A DNA stretch of 64,000 bases. It comes from Thermomicrobiales bacterium. Its GTDB lineage: Bacteria > Chloroflexota > Chloroflexia > Thermomicrobiales > UBA6265. Both the position numbers and the translations under genes were made by a program. The notes beneath the pieces are model-generated. The model ran no database searches and was not told the DNA's origin. It was given only the letters and a program-made list of their open reading frames with translations. Shown here one piece after another: positions 26,811 to 32,916 of the stretch. The stretch's first letter is position 1. Each line of letters starts with the position of its first letter. The stretch is from assembly GCA_039809985.1 (NCBI GenBank), contig JBDHWC010000002.1, forward strand, positions 21,917 to 85,916, written 5' to 3'.

Positions 26811-26918
26811 TCCCGGGTCGCACGCCCGCATCGTGACGCCGACTTCCGCCCGTGGGGTAGCCTTCGCAAGCGGCGACTTGCCGCGGTGACGGGGAGGACG
26901 CGGGAGCGAGCAGGCAAC

Positions 26919-28064
26919 ATGGCCACTCGGGAACTTGGCATGACGACGCGCTGCGTGCACGCCGGCGAAGCGCCTGACCCGACAACCGGCGCCCACGGCG
27001 TGCCTCTCTACGCCAGCGTCACCTACGCCTTCCGCTCGTTCGACCAACTGGAGGGGATGCGGGCCGGGTCGGTACCGCACTTCACCTACGCCCCGCGCGG
27101 CAACCCGACCGTTCGCTGCCTCGAGCTCAAGCTGGCCGACCTCGAGCGGACCGAGGCGTCCGTCGCCGGCGCGTCCGGCATGTCGGTGATCAGCGCCACG
27201 CTGCTCGCCCTCTGTGGCAACGGGGGCCACGTCGTCGCAGCGGACAACATCTACGAGCTGACCCAGTCCTACCTGCGCGACGAACTGCCGGCGCTCGGCG
27301 GCTCGGTCTCCTTCGTCGACGCGAACGAGCCGGGCGCGATTGAGGCGGCGATCCGCCCGGCGACTCGGCTGGTCTACGCCGAGCCGTTCTCGAACCCGCT
27401 TCTCTCGGTCACCGACCTGCGACGCCTCGCCGACATCGCCCATGCTCGGGATTTGCCGCTGGTCGTCGACAACACGTTCCTCTCCCCGGCCGTGCTCCGC
27501 CCGGCGGAGCACGGGGCGGACCTCGTGCTGCACAGCGCCACCAAGTACCTCTCCGGCCACGGCCAAGTGCAGGGCGGCTTCGCCTCTGGCAGTCGGGCGC
27601 TGGTCGAGCCGATCCGTGAGCGGCTGATCCGCAACGGCGGCGCGATGCCCCCTTTCTCGGCTTGGACGATCCTCGCCGGGATCAAGACCCTCACGCTCCG
27701 CATGCGCCAGCACAGCGCCAACGCGCTCGCGCTCGGCCGCCTCTGCGCGACCCATCCGGCCGTCGCCGAGGTGCGCTACCCCGGCCTGGAGTGCCACCCG
27801 GGCCATGCCACCGCGATCGCCCTCACGGGCGGACCTTGCGGCGGCATGCTGAGCCTGACCCTGCGCGGCGGTCGCGCGTCGAAGGCGGCCTTCATCGACG
27901 CGCTGGAACTGCCGGTGCTGGCCGTCAGCCTCGGCGACGTCTCGACCTTGGTCTGGCCGTGGGCAACCGGCGACCTGATCCGGGTCTCGGTCGGGATCGA
28001 GGACGAAGCCGACCTCCTCGCCGACTTCGCGCAGGCTCTCGACGCGGCGCGTGCCGCAGGTTGA
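26919..28064 (+). CDS. Cys/Met-metabolism PLP enzyme (cystathionine gamma-synthase/lyase family)
   Basis: VHAGE, YAPRGNPT, ASGMS, VVDNTF, HSATKYLSGH, VSLGD, IRVSVGIED. Confidence 0.93.
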   Translation: MATRELGMTTRCVHAGEAPDPTTGAHGVPLYASVTYAFRSFDQLEGMRAGSVPHFTYAPRGNPTVRCLELKLADLERTEASVAGASGMSVISATLLALCGNGGHVVAADNIYELTQSYLRDELPALGGSVSFVDANEPGAIEAAIRPATRLVYAEPFSNPLLSVTDLRRLADIAHARDLPLVVDNTFLSPAVLRPAEHGADLVLHSATKYLSGHGQVQGGFASGSRALVEPIRERLIRNGGAMPPFSAWTILAGIKTLTLRMRQHSANALALGRLCATHPAVAEVRYPGLECHPGHATAIALTGGPCGGMLSLTLRGGRASKAAFIDALELPVLAVSLGDVSTLVWPWATGDLIRVSVGIEDEADLLADFAQALDAARAAG

Positions 28065-28120
28065 ATCCCGCCGGGGACGGGGGTAGGATCGGGTGGGATG
28101 ACGCGCGAGGGGAGCAACGG

Positions 28121-28642
28121 ATGGCCATCGAAGTCGGGCAGTCGGCACCGGAGATCCACGGGACGTTCGAGGACGCCGACGGCAAGCCGCACGATCTCGC
28201 CGCCGAACTGGGTGACGGCCCGACGCTGATCGGCCTCTACAAGAGTTCGTGCCAGGCCAGCAAGACGTTCTTCCCGTTCCTCGAGCGACTGCACGAGCGG
28301 TACAAGGACGCCGGCCTGCGCGTGGTCGGCATCGGCCAGGACTCGCCCAACATCACGCGCTCCTTCGCGCGGCGGCTCGGCCTCACCTTCCCGATCCTGA
28401 TCGAGCCTGAGGGCTACCCGGTCTCCAACGCCTTCGACATCGCCGCCACCCCGACAGTGTTCCTGATTGGTCGCGACGGGAAGATCGCGTACACGACGAT
28501 GGGGTTCCTGAAACCCGGCCTTGACGCAATGGGCGACGCGGTCGCCGACGCGCTCGGCCTGCCGCACCAGCCGCTCGTCGGCGAGGACGACGCCAGCGTC
28601 CCGATGTTCGTCCCCGGCTGACCCTCGAAGCATCTGGACTAG
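28121..28642 (+). CDS. TlpA/redoxin-family thioredoxin-fold protein, probable selenoprotein (in-frame TGA 28619-28621; ends at 28621 if TGA is a stop)
   Basis: VGQSAP, CQAS (CxxS), ATPTVFLIGRDGKI. The 3' end reads CCC GGC TGA CCC TCG AAG CAT CTG GAC TAG = PG(U)PSKHLD*. Confidence 0.85.
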
Positions 28643-28656
28643 GGGTGCCCTGGTCC
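28636..28656 (+). promoter_or_regulatory. candidate bacterial SECIS hairpin
   Basis: GGACTAGGG-GTG-CCCTGGTCC begins 14 nt after the TGA; the loop starts with G, about 23 nt from the UGA. Confidence 0.55.
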
Positions 28657-28685
28657 GACCGCACTCACCAAGGACGGCCCTTCGC

Positions 28686-28880
28686 GTGCGCCACCTGAGA
28701 CGCCTCTCCGTCCTGCTCACCGTGATCGGCATCGTGGCGACGGTCGCCGGCCTCGCGGGCGTGGTGCCGCCGACGGTGACGATCGGCGGCGTGCTGCTGG
28801 CTTGGGCCGGGGTCGTCAAGATCGTCGCGCTCGAGATTTGGCGCAGGGTGCTCAACCAGCCGCCGGAGCGGTCGTTGTAG
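28686..28880 (+). CDS. small 2-TM membrane protein
   Basis: MRHLRRLSVLLTVIGIVATVAGLAGVVPP..GGVLLAWAGVVKIVAL; AAGGA upstream. Confidence 0.6.
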   Translation: MRHLRRLSVLLTVIGIVATVAGLAGVVPPTVTIGGVLLAWAGVVKIVALEIWRRVLNQPPERSL

Positions 28881-28903
28881 GACGGGCAGCGCGAGGACGG
28901 ACC

Positions 28904-29176
28904 ATGACCGAGCGGACGCCCCAGCAGGAACGCGCCGAGCAGATTCGCCGGTCGCGGCAGGTGATCGCCGGCCCGGACCTTCCGCCGCCCGGTGACCCGC
29001 TCGAGTTCGCGGACGACGACGCGGCAACTTCCTCCCCGGTGTTCTGGTACCTGGTGGCCCTCAGCGTGCTCCTCGTGCTCTCGGCGCTGCTCTGGGCCGT
29101 CTGGGGCATGGGCGCGGCCTCGTTGCCGCTCCTGATCCTCGCGATCGGGCTGCTGCTCGCCTGGTTCATGCTGTAG
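28904..29176 (+). CDS. small membrane protein
   Basis: Hydrophilic N-half plus two C-terminal TM helices; GAGGA RBS. Confidence 0.65.
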   Translation: MTERTPQQERAEQIRRSRQVIAGPDLPPPGDPLEFADDDAATSSPVFWYLVALSVLLVLSALLWAVWGMGAASLPLLILAIGLLLAWFML

Positions 29177-29311: not shown

Positions 29312-30877
29312 CTACGGGTGGCTCGCCGGGTCGAGCGGGTCGGTCCCGTGGATCATCACCTCGTCGCCGTCGGACCAGCCGTCGCCGTCGGTGTCGGGGT
29401 TGTTCGGGTCGGTGCCGTGCGTGTTGATTTCCTGGCCGTCCAGCAGGCCGTCGCCGTCCGTGTCGACGCTGTAGAGGTCCTGCGTGCCGGTGGCGTCGCC
29501 GCCCGCGGCTGTGCCACCGGAGCCCGTCGATCCGGCTTCTCCGGTGCCGTTGCCGGGGGTCAGCGGATCCGTTCCCTGAGCGATCTCGTCGCCGTCGCCC
29601 ACGCCGTCGCCGTCGGTGTCGAACACGAGCGGCTGCGTCCCGATCTTCACTTCCTGCCCGTCGAGCAGACCGTCGCCGTCGGTGTCCGCCTTGCCCGGGT
29701 CCGTGTTCATCGCCTGTTCTTCGGCATCGGTCAACCCGTCGCCGTCGATGTCCGGACCCGACGTCTCCTCAGTCGCGACCGCCTCAGGGGCGACGGTCGG
29801 CTCCTCCGCGGGAGGCGCTTCGGTCGGCGCTTCCTCGGCCGGGGCCTGTGTCGCCTCCACCACGGCCTCTTCGGGTGGCGTCGGCTCCTCCTGCGCCTGC
29901 GTGTCAGGCGCCTGCTCCTGCGGCGCGACGGTGGCCTCCGCCGCGGCACCGGCCTGCCCCGACTGGCCGGCCTGGTCGTTATTCTTGTTCTTCTTGTCCT
30001 TGGCCTTGTCCTGAGCGGCGTTGGCGTCCGCGTTCGCGGCAGCCTGACCGGCTTGCCCGTTCTGCGCCGCCTTGTCCTTCGCCTGCTTGTCCGCCACGCC
30101 CGCACCGAGCTGCGGCACCTCCGGCCCGATCCTTCCGGCCAGCACGACCGCGCCCTCCGAGCCGCCCGTGAGCGTCAGGTCGCCGCTGAAGCTCCCCGAC
30201 TGCCCCGCGTCGAGGCTGGCCGACGCCCCGTTCGAGGTCGTCACCGTCGCCGCGCCCTCGGTCACCAGCACCACGGTCGGGCCGTCGCCGGCCGCCAGCG
30301 TCGCCGTCTCCCCGGCCGCCAGCGGGTCGCGCACCAGGTCGAGGTCGTGCCGCTTCGCGGGCGCGGCGAATGCCTCGCTCGTGAACGTCACTTGGCCACC
30401 GTCCGGCTTGCCGGCGTCGGTGCCGACCAACTCCAGCGCGTAGTACGCGGCCGGGTCGGACCCGAGCGAGGCTCGAATCTGCTTGCCACCTCCGCTGACG
30501 AACGCCGCCTCGCCGGCCGGCAGGCGATCCTGACTGCCGGTGTCGACGTCCTGCACGAGCAGCGTGCCTTGGTCGGCCACGATGAAGCCGAGCGAGGACC
30601 CGTCTTGGCTCGCCGAGTCCGCAGGATCGCCCGAGCCCTGAACCACGCGCCAGCTCGCGTTCCCCGTCGGCAGGTTGGCGACGCCTTGGGCCACCACGGC
30701 GGCGGTGCCGCTGGCCGGGGAATCCCCGCTCGGTGCCTGCTGGGCAAGCACGCCGAGCAGCGGCGCACCCGTCATCGCCGCGATCGCCAGCAAGCTCGCG
30801 AGGCCGCGGCGCGACCGCGACCTCGTCGCGGCGCGCGGCCGACCGTTCGTCACATCGTCCGAAGTTGACTGCGTCAT
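29312..30877 (-). CDS. secreted protein: cupin-like N-terminal module, Ala/Glu/Pro linker, bacterial TSP3-type Ca-binding repeats
   Basis: Signal peptide ending VLAQ; five D(T/I)DGDG..D.E...GT(D/Q)P-type repeats. Start uncertain (ORF extends to 30988). Confidence 0.8.
   Translation of the reverse strand: MTQSTSDDVTNGRPRAATRSRSRRGLASLLAIAAMTGAPLLGVLAQQAPSGDSPASGTAAVVAQGVANLPTGNASWRVVQGSGDPADSASQDGSSLGFIVADQGTLLVQDVDTGSQDRLPAGEAAFVSGGGKQIRASLGSDPAAYYALELVGTDAGKPDGGQVTFTSEAFAAPAKRHDLDLVRDPLAAGETATLAAGDGPTVVLVTEGAATVTTSNGASASLDAGQSGSFSGDLTLTGGSEGAVVLAGRIGPEVPQLGAGVADKQAKDKAAQNGQAGQAAANADANAAQDKAKDKKNKNNDQAGQSGQAGAAAEATVAPQEQAPDTQAQEEPTPPEEAVVEATQAPAEEAPTEAPPAEEPTVAPEAVATEETSGPDIDGDGLTDAEEQAMNTDPGKADTDGDGLLDGQEVKIGTQPLVFDTDGDGVGDGDEIAQGTDPLTPGNGTGEAGSTGSGGTAAGGDATGTQDLYSVDTDGDGLLDGQEINTHGTDPNNPDTDGDGWSDGDEVMIHGTDPLDPASHP
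29325..29755 (-). repeat. five coding DxDGDG (TSP3-like) repeats
   Basis: Repeated gccgtcgccgtcggtgtc-like units encoding DIDGDGLTD, DTDGDGLLD, DTDGDGVGD, DTDGDGLLD, DTDGDGWSD. Confidence 0.85.
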
Positions 30878-30984
30878 GCGAATCTGTCCCTTCCCTACCG
30901 TGCGTGCTCCCACGGTGCCGAGCGAATCATCACCCACCGACGGGCGTGCCGTCCTCCCCAAACCCTCCGCCTGATGACTGGCTG

Positions 30985-32916
30985 TCACGGCGTCGGAGAC
31001 GCCGCCGTGCCCGGACGCAACGAGTAGACCGCGATCCCGCCCGCGCGCTGGGTGTCCGTGAGCGAGATCGCGAACGCCGGCGGCGACACCGAGACCAAGC
31101 TCGCGCCGGGCGCGATCACGCCGCTCGCGTCAGGCGGCATGGAGACGACGTCGACCGTCACCGGACCGATCGGCACGTCACCCCAAGTCAGCGCGCCCGC
31201 CCCTACCGTGGCCTCGTTCGCACCGCGGCGTTCGCCGTCGGCGGTGACCAGCTCGACGCCGAGGCCTTTGGAAGGGCTGCAAGCATCTGGGCTGAACGTC
31301 TGGGCGGTCATGCCCGCAGGACAGTCGAACAAGGCGACGGTCATCGTCCCGTTGGCGCTCGGCGTGCCTGGGACCGGCGTGGGGCTGGCCGGCGCGCCCG
31401 CCGGTTGCAGGAAGAACGCTCGCAACGCCAGCTCTGGCTGCGACCCGTCGATGGTCAGGGTGTAGTCGCCGGCGGCCGGGTCGAACGTCGCCTCGGGCAC
31501 GACGTAGGTGTCGTAGCCGGCCGGGAGCGAGACGAACCCGAAGCGGTAGGTGCCGGTCGCCAAGCCGGACCACGTCGACCGCCCGCCCGAGCCGGTGTCC
31601 GTCGGCGCAACGGCTTGTCCGCCCGGAGCGGTCAACTGCGGCACGAACCCCGTGTCGACCGCGACGCAGTCGGCCTCGCGCTGGCGCAAGGTGTCCAGCG
31701 TGACCGTCGCGGGGCACGCGAACCCCTCCAGTGTCATCTGCGTCGCGCTCCCCGGCCGCAGGAAGTAGATCGTGGCCGTGAAGTCCGGTTGCGCCGCCGA
31801 CACGGGGAGGCCCGTCGCCGCGCTCTGCGCCGTCGTGCTGCCCGCGCCGATGACCGTGCCCGCGCCGTCGACCACGACGTACCGGTCAAACCCGTTGGGG
31901 ATCGTCACCGGAGACAACGGGAAGGTTCCGAACCTGAGCCCGGACCATCGATCCGTGCCCGTGGCCGAGTCCGACTGGCTCGGCGGCAGCGACGAGCCGT
32001 CAGCCAGCGCCAAGGTCGGCGGCGGGGTGAGCGTGACCGGGCTGCACGCCGTCGTGTCGTCGACTGCCACCGTGCTGCCGGCAAACGCATCGGGATCAAT
32101 CGAGGCGGGGCAGCCGCGGGCGACGAGGGCGATCGAGCCGGTCGGCGGCACCGGCGGCGCGGGCATCTCCGGCCCGATCACTGCCGCGACCACCACGGCG
32201 GGCTGGGTCCCGATGGAAGCGATGGTCAGGTTGCCGGCGAGCGACGCGGCATGTCCGGCAGTCAGGCGCACGGGAAGCTGGCCGCTCGACCTCACCTCAA
32301 GCTCGCCGTCGGTGGCGAGGACCAAGGCCGGCAGGTTCGGCGACGCGATGGAGGTGCTCTCGCCCTGCCTCAGAACGTCCCGGACGAGCGCGATGTCGAA
32401 CGCCCGGCCGACGGGGGCGGCGAACAGACTGCCGGCCAGCACCATCCGGTCGCCGCCGGCGTCGTTCGCCTGCTCTGCCGCGACCAGCGCCACGCGGTAG
32501 TACGGCGCGTCGGCGCTGCCCAGGCTGACGCGCTGCTGCTGCGCGCCGGACGGCACGAAGATCGCCTCGCCCGGTGCCAGTCGCCATTGCTGGCCGCTGC
32601 CGGTGTCGTTCACCGCCAGCGCAGCGCGGTCGGCGACGGCGAATCCGAGCGCGCGCTGCTCGGTCTCGGCCGCGGCGGGAAGTTCCGCCGTGTCGGCGAC
32701 AACTCGCCACGCGATTGATTCGGCCGGTATCGGCGCAACGCCGTGCGCGATGACCTGCGCGTGCCCGGTCGCGGGCGACGGCGCGTTTGCCGTCTGCAAC
32801 TGGACTGCCGCGGCAACCGCCGTCGGCAAGACCACCGCCGTCGCGACTGCGAGCAGGAGACGCCTGCCAGCGGATCGCCTCCAGCCGCGTCCCCATCGGT
32901 TCCCGCGGTCGCGCAC
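30985..32916 (-). CDS. secreted protein: the same cupin-like N-terminal module plus three Cys-pair beta-sandwich repeats
   Basis: Signal peptide; AQVIAHGVAPIP..WRVV parallels AVVAQGVANLP..WRVV of the neighbour; three CP...C units, each followed by W(S/G)(G/D)(L/V)xxG. Confidence 0.8.
   Translation of the reverse strand: MRDRGNRWGRGWRRSAGRRLLLAVATAVVLPTAVAAAVQLQTANAPSPATGHAQVIAHGVAPIPAESIAWRVVADTAELPAAAETEQRALGFAVADRAALAVNDTGSGQQWRLAPGEAIFVPSGAQQQRVSLGSADAPYYRVALVAAEQANDAGGDRMVLAGSLFAAPVGRAFDIALVRDVLRQGESTSIASPNLPALVLATDGELEVRSSGQLPVRLTAGHAASLAGNLTIASIGTQPAVVVAAVIGPEMPAPPVPPTGSIALVARGCPASIDPDAFAGSTVAVDDTTACSPVTLTPPPTLALADGSSLPPSQSDSATGTDRWSGLRFGTFPLSPVTIPNGFDRYVVVDGAGTVIGAGSTTAQSAATGLPVSAAQPDFTATIYFLRPGSATQMTLEGFACPATVTLDTLRQREADCVAVDTGFVPQLTAPGGQAVAPTDTGSGGRSTWSGLATGTYRFGFVSLPAGYDTYVVPEATFDPAAGDYTLTIDGSQPELALRAFFLQPAGAPASPTPVPGTPSANGTMTVALFDCPAGMTAQTFSPDACSPSKGLGVELVTADGERRGANEATVGAGALTWGDVPIGPVTVDVVSMPPDASGVIAPGASLVSVSPPAFAISLTDTQRAGGIAVYSLRPGTAASPTP

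Follow-up and report, generated by a model that had tools for sequence, protein, structure and literature searches.

A gene for a ResA/TlpA-like thioredoxin-fold redoxin, at 28121..28642 on the + strand of a 64,000-nucleotide stretch of DNA from a Thermomicrobiales bacterium (GenBank assembly GCA_039809985.1; the whole stretch is hereafter the window), almost certainly encodes a selenoprotein, with selenocysteine (Sec) inserted at an in-frame UGA that stands as codon 167. To judge from the homologous loci compared below, selection maintains this UGA as a sense codon on a par with Cys, accompanied by a covarying hairpin that vanishes when Cys takes its place. The protein appears to be a thioredoxin-fold selenoprotein with a novel Sec position, in a docked C-terminal tail, and to belong to a widespread, Sec-dominated and systematically truncated family.

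The original prediction, made from the window sequence, placed the ATG at 28121 and the TGA at 28619..28621, immediately after VPMFVPG, and both positions are correct. As conventionally called, the open reading frame (ORF; 28121..28621, + strand) ends there as a product of 166 amino acids (aa). Past the TGA the frame continues, as had been proposed, with CCC TCG AAG CAT CTG GAC (PSKHLD) and is closed by TAG at 28640..28642, so that translation with TGA as U gives 173 codons plus the TAG. The C-terminal tail V-P-M-F-V-P-G-U-P-S-K-H-L-D (28601..28639, +) is identified as conserved from homologue C-termini and from codon variation within it, and the UGA (28619..28621, +) is read as Sec167 from the TGA or Cys at the aligned codon in orthologues and from the Sec machinery of the genome. 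Besides the Sec position the protein has a single Cys, Cys44, as the original prediction implied. The expected truncation by standard annotation is seen in the public records HEX5499528.1, MCC7022535.1 and MDF2757531.1, all of 166 aa. The public records seen for the family stop 5-9 residues early, and the public names are TlpA disulfide reductase family protein, TlpA family protein disulfide reductase, alkyl hydroperoxide reductase and peroxiredoxin.

The UGA codon and its hairpin in Thermomicrobiales

A word-indexed search of 5.8 billion proteins returned 502 matches, and 119 of the best 120 end in ..FVPG or a one-residue variant of it, nearly all at exactly 166 aa. Such an abrupt stop of a strongly conserved motif is a typical mark of truncated selenoproteins. 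When 151 genomes of the same order were searched reading through stops, 54 matched, and the DNA was compared at 50 loci, the window's included (genomes G053, G088, G110 and G128 matched and lie outside these 50). The aligned codon is TGA at 47 of the 50, with P-[SG]-[KQRN]-[HN]-x-x and then a stop behind it. At the other three (L045, L061 and L071) it is a Cys codon, TGT or TGC, with the same tail in frame, which is ..FIPG-C-PGKHLD-stop in genomes G019 and G081 and ..FVPA-C-PSKHLESVFRS-stop in G093. Two loci, L029 and L030, come from genomes flagged as unpublished; without both, the tally is 45 TGA and 3 Cys of 48.

Cys opposite the TGA had been named in advance as support for read-through. 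It occurs in these three loci and in the database proteins P0129, P0154, P0200, P0219, P0232, P0240 and P0255. The PG-C-x-S-K ends that the original prediction had ascribed to related redoxins also exist, with P0129 ending ..FVPGCPSKHLI, P0232 ..RPGCMSKQPA and P0240 ..KPGCESKRPA. Orthologues ending at PG with TAA or TAG, the outcome that would have spoken for a true stop, were not seen: the codon is TGA at 47 of the 50 loci here and at all 80 of the best loci of the wider family (below). Long ORFs of the window genome end in TGA (52%), TAG (45%) or TAA (3%), and as its second stop the gene has TAG at 37 loci and TGA at 8. Downstream of the TGA the tail is conserved at the protein level while its codons change synonymously. 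The tail Pro codon is CCA in 23 loci, CCC in 12, CCG in 11 and CCT in 1; Ser is TCN in 31 and AGY in 15; His is CAC in 24 and CAT in 22. This synonymous variation indicates that selection acts on the peptide. His171 is kept in 46 of the 47 Sec loci of the order.

The 9-bp hairpin of the original prediction (GGACTAGGG/CCCTGGTCC) is present at 28636..28644 and 28648..28656. RNAfold adds a U-G pair (28635-28657), giving a 10-bp hairpin of the bacterial selenocysteine insertion sequence (bSECIS) type at 28635..28657 (+), with two G-U pairs in the stem, a GUG loop at 28645..28647 and an energy of -16.2 kcal/mol. The stem begins 14 nucleotides (nt) past the TGA, the distance from UGA to loop is 23 nt, and the true stop, TAG 28640..28642, is enclosed by the hairpin. 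No T run follows it. According to section 5 of a 2026 review (PMC13188914), the bSECIS consensus comprises a loop of 3-9 nt, an upper stem of 4-16 bp, a G in the first two loop positions, a UGA-to-loop distance of 16-37 nt and a minimum free energy of at most -7.5 kcal/mol; the window hairpin falls within every constraint listed in that section.

A hairpin occupies the equivalent place in all 47 TGA loci. Stems there are 7-13 bp long and start 10-16 nt after the UGA, energies run from -6.6 to -16.2 kcal/mol, and the loops are GUU (25 loci), C-GNG-N (6), GUG (5), GUC (4), GGUC (4), GGG (2) and GUA (1). In contrast, none of the three Cys loci has it; their folds reach just -3.0 to -4.7 kcal/mol, with no comparable helix. 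Because variable loop lengths put the 3' arms out of register in the MAFFT alignment of the SECIS region, pairs were counted only on the loci, 18 of the 47, with a common geometry, a subset picked by that very feature. Among these 18, 97.9% of cells pair and 4 of the 8 pairs show changes on both sides. The covariation score was reached by none of 500 shuffles, and sliding the partner columns reduced pairing to 31-49%. A covariance model built from the same loci matched at the correct place in 43 of the 47 TGA loci and matched no acidobacterial-branch hairpin at its place; its alignment includes 4 spurious matches.

The wider family and the Sec machinery

When 1.84 billion cluster representatives were searched exhaustively with HMMER, 12,162 matched at E<=0.001 and 552 at E<=1e-10. 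The best 150 representatives comprise 100 that end in PG or AG, 6 that are Cys-tailed, and 44 fragments, frameshifted products or multidomain TlpA proteins. Those ending in PG or AG typically finish in ..D-x-x-P-x-[FWY]-[KR]-P-G at a length of about 160-165; the position before PG, V in the window protein, is usually K or R in the wider family. Examples of the Cys tail among the representatives are ..RPGCMSKQPA, ..KPGCESKRPA and ..PACPSKHIQ... One representative genome per species was also scanned with patterns from an alignment of 14 family proteins, which confirmed at least 577 stretches. Of these, the best 80 come mostly from Acidobacteriota (Acidoferrales / 'Acidiferrum'), with one locus each from Dormibacterota, Methylomirabilota, Verrucomicrobiia, Eremiobacteraceae and Limnocylindrales. 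At all 80, the codon after ..[KR]PG is TGA, and behind it come [GSHT]-[SA]-[KR]-[NG], a stop and then a hairpin with a GGU(C)-type loop. The other PG/AG-ended representatives presumably carry a TGA as well, as deduced from their truncation alone.

Read-through also calls for Sec machinery, and selA, selB, selC and selD, which the original prediction had asked after, are all in the window genome (365 contigs, 85.8% complete, 72.7% G+C) above curated cut-offs. The tRNA-Sec scores 67.3 bits against Rfam (gathering score 47) and is called by ARAGORN as tRNA-SeC with anticodon TCA. selA scores 469.9 bits in a gene interrupted by a contig end, and selB scores 324.8 bits, covering model positions 1-345 of 581. 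The selB match (contig C211:1540-2622, +) sits in a 1089-codon open frame; its mRNA-binding C-terminal region may have diverged, or other sequence may be part of the frame. selD (363.1 bits; contig C4:49372-50307, -) has one in-frame TGA of its own, ..SCAG-TGA-AAKLG, with a hairpin downstream. SelD of this genome is thus probably itself a selenoprotein, in which case the organism already makes at least one.

Across the order, selA is present in 121 of the 151 genomes. By hand comparison of two tables, it accompanies the TGA form in 50 of 51 genomes, the window's included, and the lone TGA-form genome without a selA match, G110, is about 70% complete. Cys-form G093 has no selA match at 88% completeness, and Cys-form G019 and G081 do have selA. 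These tallies take in the unpublished genomes G076, G134, G035 and G095. Read-through is supported: the conserved TGA, Cys in homologues, the conserved tail, the hairpin and the Sec genes were all found.

Predicted tail docking and the proposed role of Sec167

The AlphaFold2 input was a 107-row alignment in which Sec was entered as Cys and L029 and L030 were omitted. The full-length model has a mean predicted local distance difference test score (pLDDT) of 95.6 and a predicted template modelling score (pTM) of 0.91; the average is 96 over residues 161-170 and 85 over residues 171-173, so the model positions the tail with confidence. DSSP assigns bridges in this model at 109-110, 129-130, 163-164 and 167-168, and a control model of residues 1-148 (74-row alignment, pLDDT 94.2) has none at 109-110 or 129-130. 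Residues 109-110 directly precede Pro111 (codon 28451..28453, +; in A-T-P-T), which is invariant in two family alignments and is presumed cis from the fold family. In thioredoxin folds, substrate peptides pair with the strand before the cis-proline, beside the nucleophilic Cys. Since the bridges at 109-110 are seen only with the tail, the tail would fill the protein's own substrate groove, and the model suggests that Sec167 docks next to Cys44. The latter opens the active-site motif C44-Q-A-S47 (28250..28261, +; Cys44 codon 28250..28252), in the context YKSSCQASK; K41 and C44 are invariant or nearly so in two family alignments.

The best PDB matches found by Foldseek are ResA chains (E ~5e-14, TM-score normalised to target 0.80-0.85). 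Other solved relatives are TlpA/DsbE-like proteins, and a profile search of PDB sequences also ranks ResA first. Among the PDB sequence matches listed, none extends beyond profile position 151, so that no solved structure there spans the tail. In Pfam the protein matches AhpC-TSA (PF00578, 56.1 bits, cut-off 26) and Redoxin (PF08534, 52.5 bits, cut-off 26.6). Its best NCBIfam match is ResA (NF002854) at 62.4 bits against a cut-off of 170, which leaves it outside the ResA subfamily proper. The dithiol CxxC site is absent, the motif being C-Q-A-S, as is the peroxiredoxin PxxxT/SxxC signature, with Lys41 at position -3 instead of Thr or Ser. The N-terminus, MAIEVGQSAPEI, opens directly at the first strand; no hydrophobic N-terminal segment was seen in the translation, to which no signal-peptide predictor was applied. 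A cytoplasmic location is presumed because there is no N-terminal signal or membrane anchor, and this lack of an anchor speaks against periplasmic roles like those of ResA and TlpA.

Residues 47 and 167 change together in the order. All 47 Sec forms have CxxS, and the three Cys loci and P0129 have CxxC. In a maximum-likelihood tree of 57 rows (L029 and L030 omitted, and just four acidobacterial-type rows), the Cys forms of G019 and G081 and that of P0129 are nested in a well-supported clade (96/92) whose other members and successive outgroups are Sec/CxxS; overall, the Cys-tail label takes at least three changes on well-supported branches. This nested topology suggests that residues 167 and 47 switched together at least twice. 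Sec gain in this lineage may have permitted loss of the second active-site Cys. A separate case is P0133 (179 aa, 48% identical), which keeps the tail (..FVPG-L-PSRHLE..) with Leu at 167 and Gly at 44; by its sequence it is apparently redox-dead, both residues having been lost together. The predicted docking, the coupled switching at 47 and 167 and the double loss in P0133 make plausible the partnership of Sec with the CxxS Cys that the original prediction had proposed.

We consider it probable overall that UGA-167 is decoded as Sec through SelB, tRNA-Sec and the hairpin, that the tail docks, and that Cys44 and Sec167 cycle. SelB and tRNA-Sec would decode the UGA at codon 167, directed by the hairpin at 28635..28657, and the tail ..VP-x-F-V-P-G-U-P-S-K-H.. 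would fold back into the protein's own substrate groove beside cis-Pro111, placing Sec167 near Cys44, the nucleophilic Cys of the former CxxC. The two residues would then alternate between a selenolate/thiol form and a selenenylsulfide that joins Cys44 to Sec167. Sec on the mobile tail would meet an oxidised substrate (a hydroperoxide, or a disulfide or sulfoxide), Cys44 would resolve the intermediate, and an external thiol system such as thioredoxin would re-reduce the Se-S bond, a step that the second Cys would perform internally in CxxC relatives. The parts of this scheme differ in strength. A Cys44-Sec167 redox pair is reasonably likely to exist, the chances are even that Sec is the residue that attacks the substrate, and an activity of the peroxidase type seems doubtful.

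Several observations weigh against this scheme. The pairing of tail and core was deduced solely from DSSP strings, in a model carrying Cys for Sec. The orthologues are kin, so the locus counts are not counts of independent events. The coupling of Sec with CxxS is lineage-specific: 77 of the 100 PG/AG-ended representatives keep CxxC, others having CxxS (12) or CxxT (1), and the Cys-tail form P0232 has CxxV. Given such variation among CxxC, CxxS and CxxV in the wider family, the constant core would be Cys44 plus the tail Sec or Cys, with residue 47 accessory. Lys41 in place of Thr or Ser at -3 weakens a classical peroxidase or peroxiredoxin identity. No conserved redox partner gene was found in the Thermomicrobiales loci or in the 80 acidobacterial-branch loci. 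As for the hairpin, we filtered 1293 long TGA-ended ORFs of the same genome with high G+C at third codon positions, requiring at least 7 contiguous bp, a loop of 3-9 nt with G in its two opening positions, a spacing of 16-37 nt and at most -7.5 kcal/mol. This bSECIS-like filter passes 4.9% of them, and 7.3% fold to -16.2 kcal/mol or lower over the equivalent interval. The hairpin by itself is within chance in a 72.7% G+C genome; the case stands on the cross-genome comparison.

The alternative that survives best retains Sec insertion and exchanges the roles, with Cys44 as the primary nucleophile or peroxidatic residue and Sec167 as a resolving residue in place of the lost second Cys of CxxC. 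The ResA/TlpA and AhpC-TSA matches do put Cys44 at the nucleophilic or peroxidatic position, and Sec gain accompanies Cys47 loss and vice versa, as if Sec took over the job of Cys47. In typical 2-Cys peroxiredoxins, moreover, the resolving Cys sits in a C-terminal tail with a Pro after it. We nevertheless think this exchange of roles unlikely. In the characterised natural selenoenzymes known to us (GPx, TrxR, MsrA/B and Sec-peroxiredoxin), Sec attacks and does not resolve, and the window protein lacks the Thr/Ser of the peroxiredoxin motif PxxxT/SxxC. In addition, most inferred Sec forms of the wider family (the same 77 of 100) keep CxxC too, which argues that Sec is not simply a substitute for Cys47.

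A good deal less credible is a metal or metalloid site formed by Cys44 and Sec167, possibly with His171, for a Sco-like chaperone or detoxification role in place of a redox pair. Sco proteins, which have the thioredoxin fold, bind copper by two Cys and a His, and His171 is retained in nearly all Sec loci of the order. Several newly described bacterial selenoproteins are given as proposed metal binders in Table 1 and the text of PMC13188914. However, the wider family does not conserve the His, the acidobacterial tail reading U-G-S-K-N; no metal transporter or regulator is a conserved neighbour in the loci compared; and the matches listed from the fold and PDB profile searches include no Sco-type entry.

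That the TGA is a genuine stop of a 166-aa protein, with the downstream conservation and hairpin belonging to a terminator or other RNA element, scarcely merits belief, even though all public gene calls end there and hairpins directly after stops are common in this genome: none of 127 TGA loci has TAA or TAG as its first stop, whereas TAG closes 45% of the genome's long ORFs, a Cys codon with the same tail continuing in frame is found in 3 loci and several database proteins, the downstream codons vary synonymously, the hairpin is lost exactly where Cys replaces Sec, no T run stands behind the window hairpin, and the motif breaks off at ..FVPG in 119 of the 120 best homologues, the usual truncation mark.

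Gene neighbourhood and comparison with known systems

A putative Shine-Dalgarno-like GGGAG (28110..28114, +), read by eye, lies 6 nt upstream of the redoxin ATG. The upstream neighbour (26886..28064, +) encodes a Cys/Met-metabolism pyridoxal phosphate (PLP) enzyme (Pfam PF01053, E 4.9e-101), whose best match is methionine gamma-lyase at 312 bits, far under the cut-off of 549.7. The original prediction saw in this lyase a possible link to sulfur and selenium metabolism. The neighbourhoods do not support that idea: the PLP gene adjoins upstream in 10 of the 30 loci with flanks (the window's included), all close kin. A Kelch-repeat gene takes the upstream place at 7 loci and a Trp/Tyr-tRNA synthetase gene at 4, at one further locus the redoxin gene lies between amidase and malate synthase, and an SMP-30-like protein and a short-chain dehydrogenase are also among the Thermomicrobiales neighbours. 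In the 80-locus branch (L073-L152), a VWA-domain gene stands upstream in 57 of 80 and an amidohydrolase downstream in 72 of 80, on the same strand; this linkage may be mere synteny, the genomes being close kin.

Downstream of the redoxin in the window are two small hydrophobic ORFs, 28686..28880 (+) and 28802..29176 (+), with no Pfam match; by tblastn, relatives of them lie downstream of the redoxin in 8 of 29 and 11 of 29 loci, respectively. An ORF of 558 residues at 29312..30988 (-) has D-T-D-G-D-G-[LW]-x-D-G-x-E repeats, which by eye resemble calcium-binding thrombospondin type 3 repeats, and a long low-complexity stretch rich in Ala, Gln, Lys and Asp; partial relatives of it flank the redoxin in several loci.

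On the sequence evidence, annotation drops what is probably the key catalytic residue of the family. Among the best 150 representatives, presumed Sec forms (the 100 that end in PG or AG) are far commoner than Cys forms (the 6 Cys-tailed); the opposite trend is stated for nearly all selenoenzymes in PMC13188914. The family points to substantial selenium use in Thermomicrobiales and soil Acidobacteriota and, if this is true, could be among the main selenium uses in aerobic soil bacteria. Its natural pairs of Sec with CxxS and Cys with CxxC offer a ready-made comparison of what Sec gives an enzyme.

No model of NCBIfam release 20.0 reaches its cut-off on the window protein, two acidobacterial read-throughs or two Cys forms. 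The candidates NF041383, WAxxUGC_long, PrxU and the SelL-related models were rejected, all being far under their cut-offs; the nearest selenoprotein model, WAxxUGC_long (NF041054), scores 13.8 bits against 300. Table 1 of PMC13188914 contains 119 prokaryotic selenoprotein families or subfamilies. Its thioredoxin-fold entries are the peroxiredoxin-like cd02970 UxxS, Prx-like UxxC/UxxU, thiol-disulfide isomerase-like UxxC, UGC-containing TlpA and Redoxin UxxC; the listed thioredoxin-fold motifs are all of the CxxC-site type, and a C-terminal PG-U-x-S-K is absent from that table. A search of the full-text literature, with survey supplements and BSepDB entries outside its range, found no description of a redoxin with C-terminal PG-U-x-S-K, and the text consulted in the GOS, Olavius, deep-Sep, BSepDB and Peng 2016 papers (PMC2398784, PMC1976440, PMC12013277, PMC13326102, PMC5029168) holds nothing on the family. 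If the family is truly absent from the catalogues, a docked C-terminal tail would be a new Sec position for thioredoxin-fold selenoproteins.

The known thioredoxin-fold bacterial selenoproteins share with the window protein the fold superfamily and a UGA-encoded Sec with a downstream bSECIS and, by Table 1 and section 6 of PMC13188914, are likewise often mis-annotated as truncated or split genes. They differ in carrying Sec inside a CxxC-type motif at the start of helix 1, whereas here a Cys stands at that place and Sec would follow about 120 residues later in the tail. The VPGUxxT family (OS_HP5, NF041383) shares V-P-G-U and a thioredoxin-like fold, by its name and motif in Table 1 of PMC13188914. 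Its 287-position model gives no match to the window protein at E<=10 (the best match in the genome, on contig C54, scores 36.5 bits against a cut-off of 275), and P-S-K follows U here but x-x-T there. Since V is usually K or R in the wider family, we take the shared V-P-G-U as coincidental. In the 'star' selenoproteins (UXX-star and KCU-star in Table 1 of PMC13188914), Sec likewise lies a few residues from the C-terminus. Their folds and motifs differ, and their NCBIfam models are not among the matches listed (E<=10). With a Sec so near the C-terminus, in the 'star' families as here, the SECIS comes to lie over or beyond the real stop and annotation loses just a few residues.

ResA, TlpA and CcmG (DsbE) resemble the window protein in fold, domain order, the active-site Cys that opens helix 1 with x-x-[C/S]-K after it, and the cis-Pro loop. 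Unlike them, the window protein is unanchored, has K-x-S-C instead of W-C and CxxS instead of CxxC, and bears an extension of about 25 residues ending in P-G-U-x-S-K.

A further likeness is to mammalian thioredoxin reductase (TrxR), which has a Gly-Cys-Sec-Gly tail on a flexible arm, with a selenenylsulfide as its oxidised state. In both, an arm with Sec near the C-terminus would carry electrons between the protein's own buried Cys centre and the substrate. TrxR is a eukaryotic flavoprotein dimer in which the partner of Sec is the adjacent tail Cys and the SECIS lies in the 3' untranslated region, whereas the window protein is a single thioredoxin domain whose partner Cys would be the active-site Cys of that domain. 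We tentatively suggest, with rather less than even confidence, that the family comprises undescribed, Sec-dominated, single-domain selenol enzymes, in which a pseudo-substrate tail bears the Sec nucleophile at its tip and the domain's own Cys serves as partner: a one-domain bacterial analogue of the selenol arm of TrxR.

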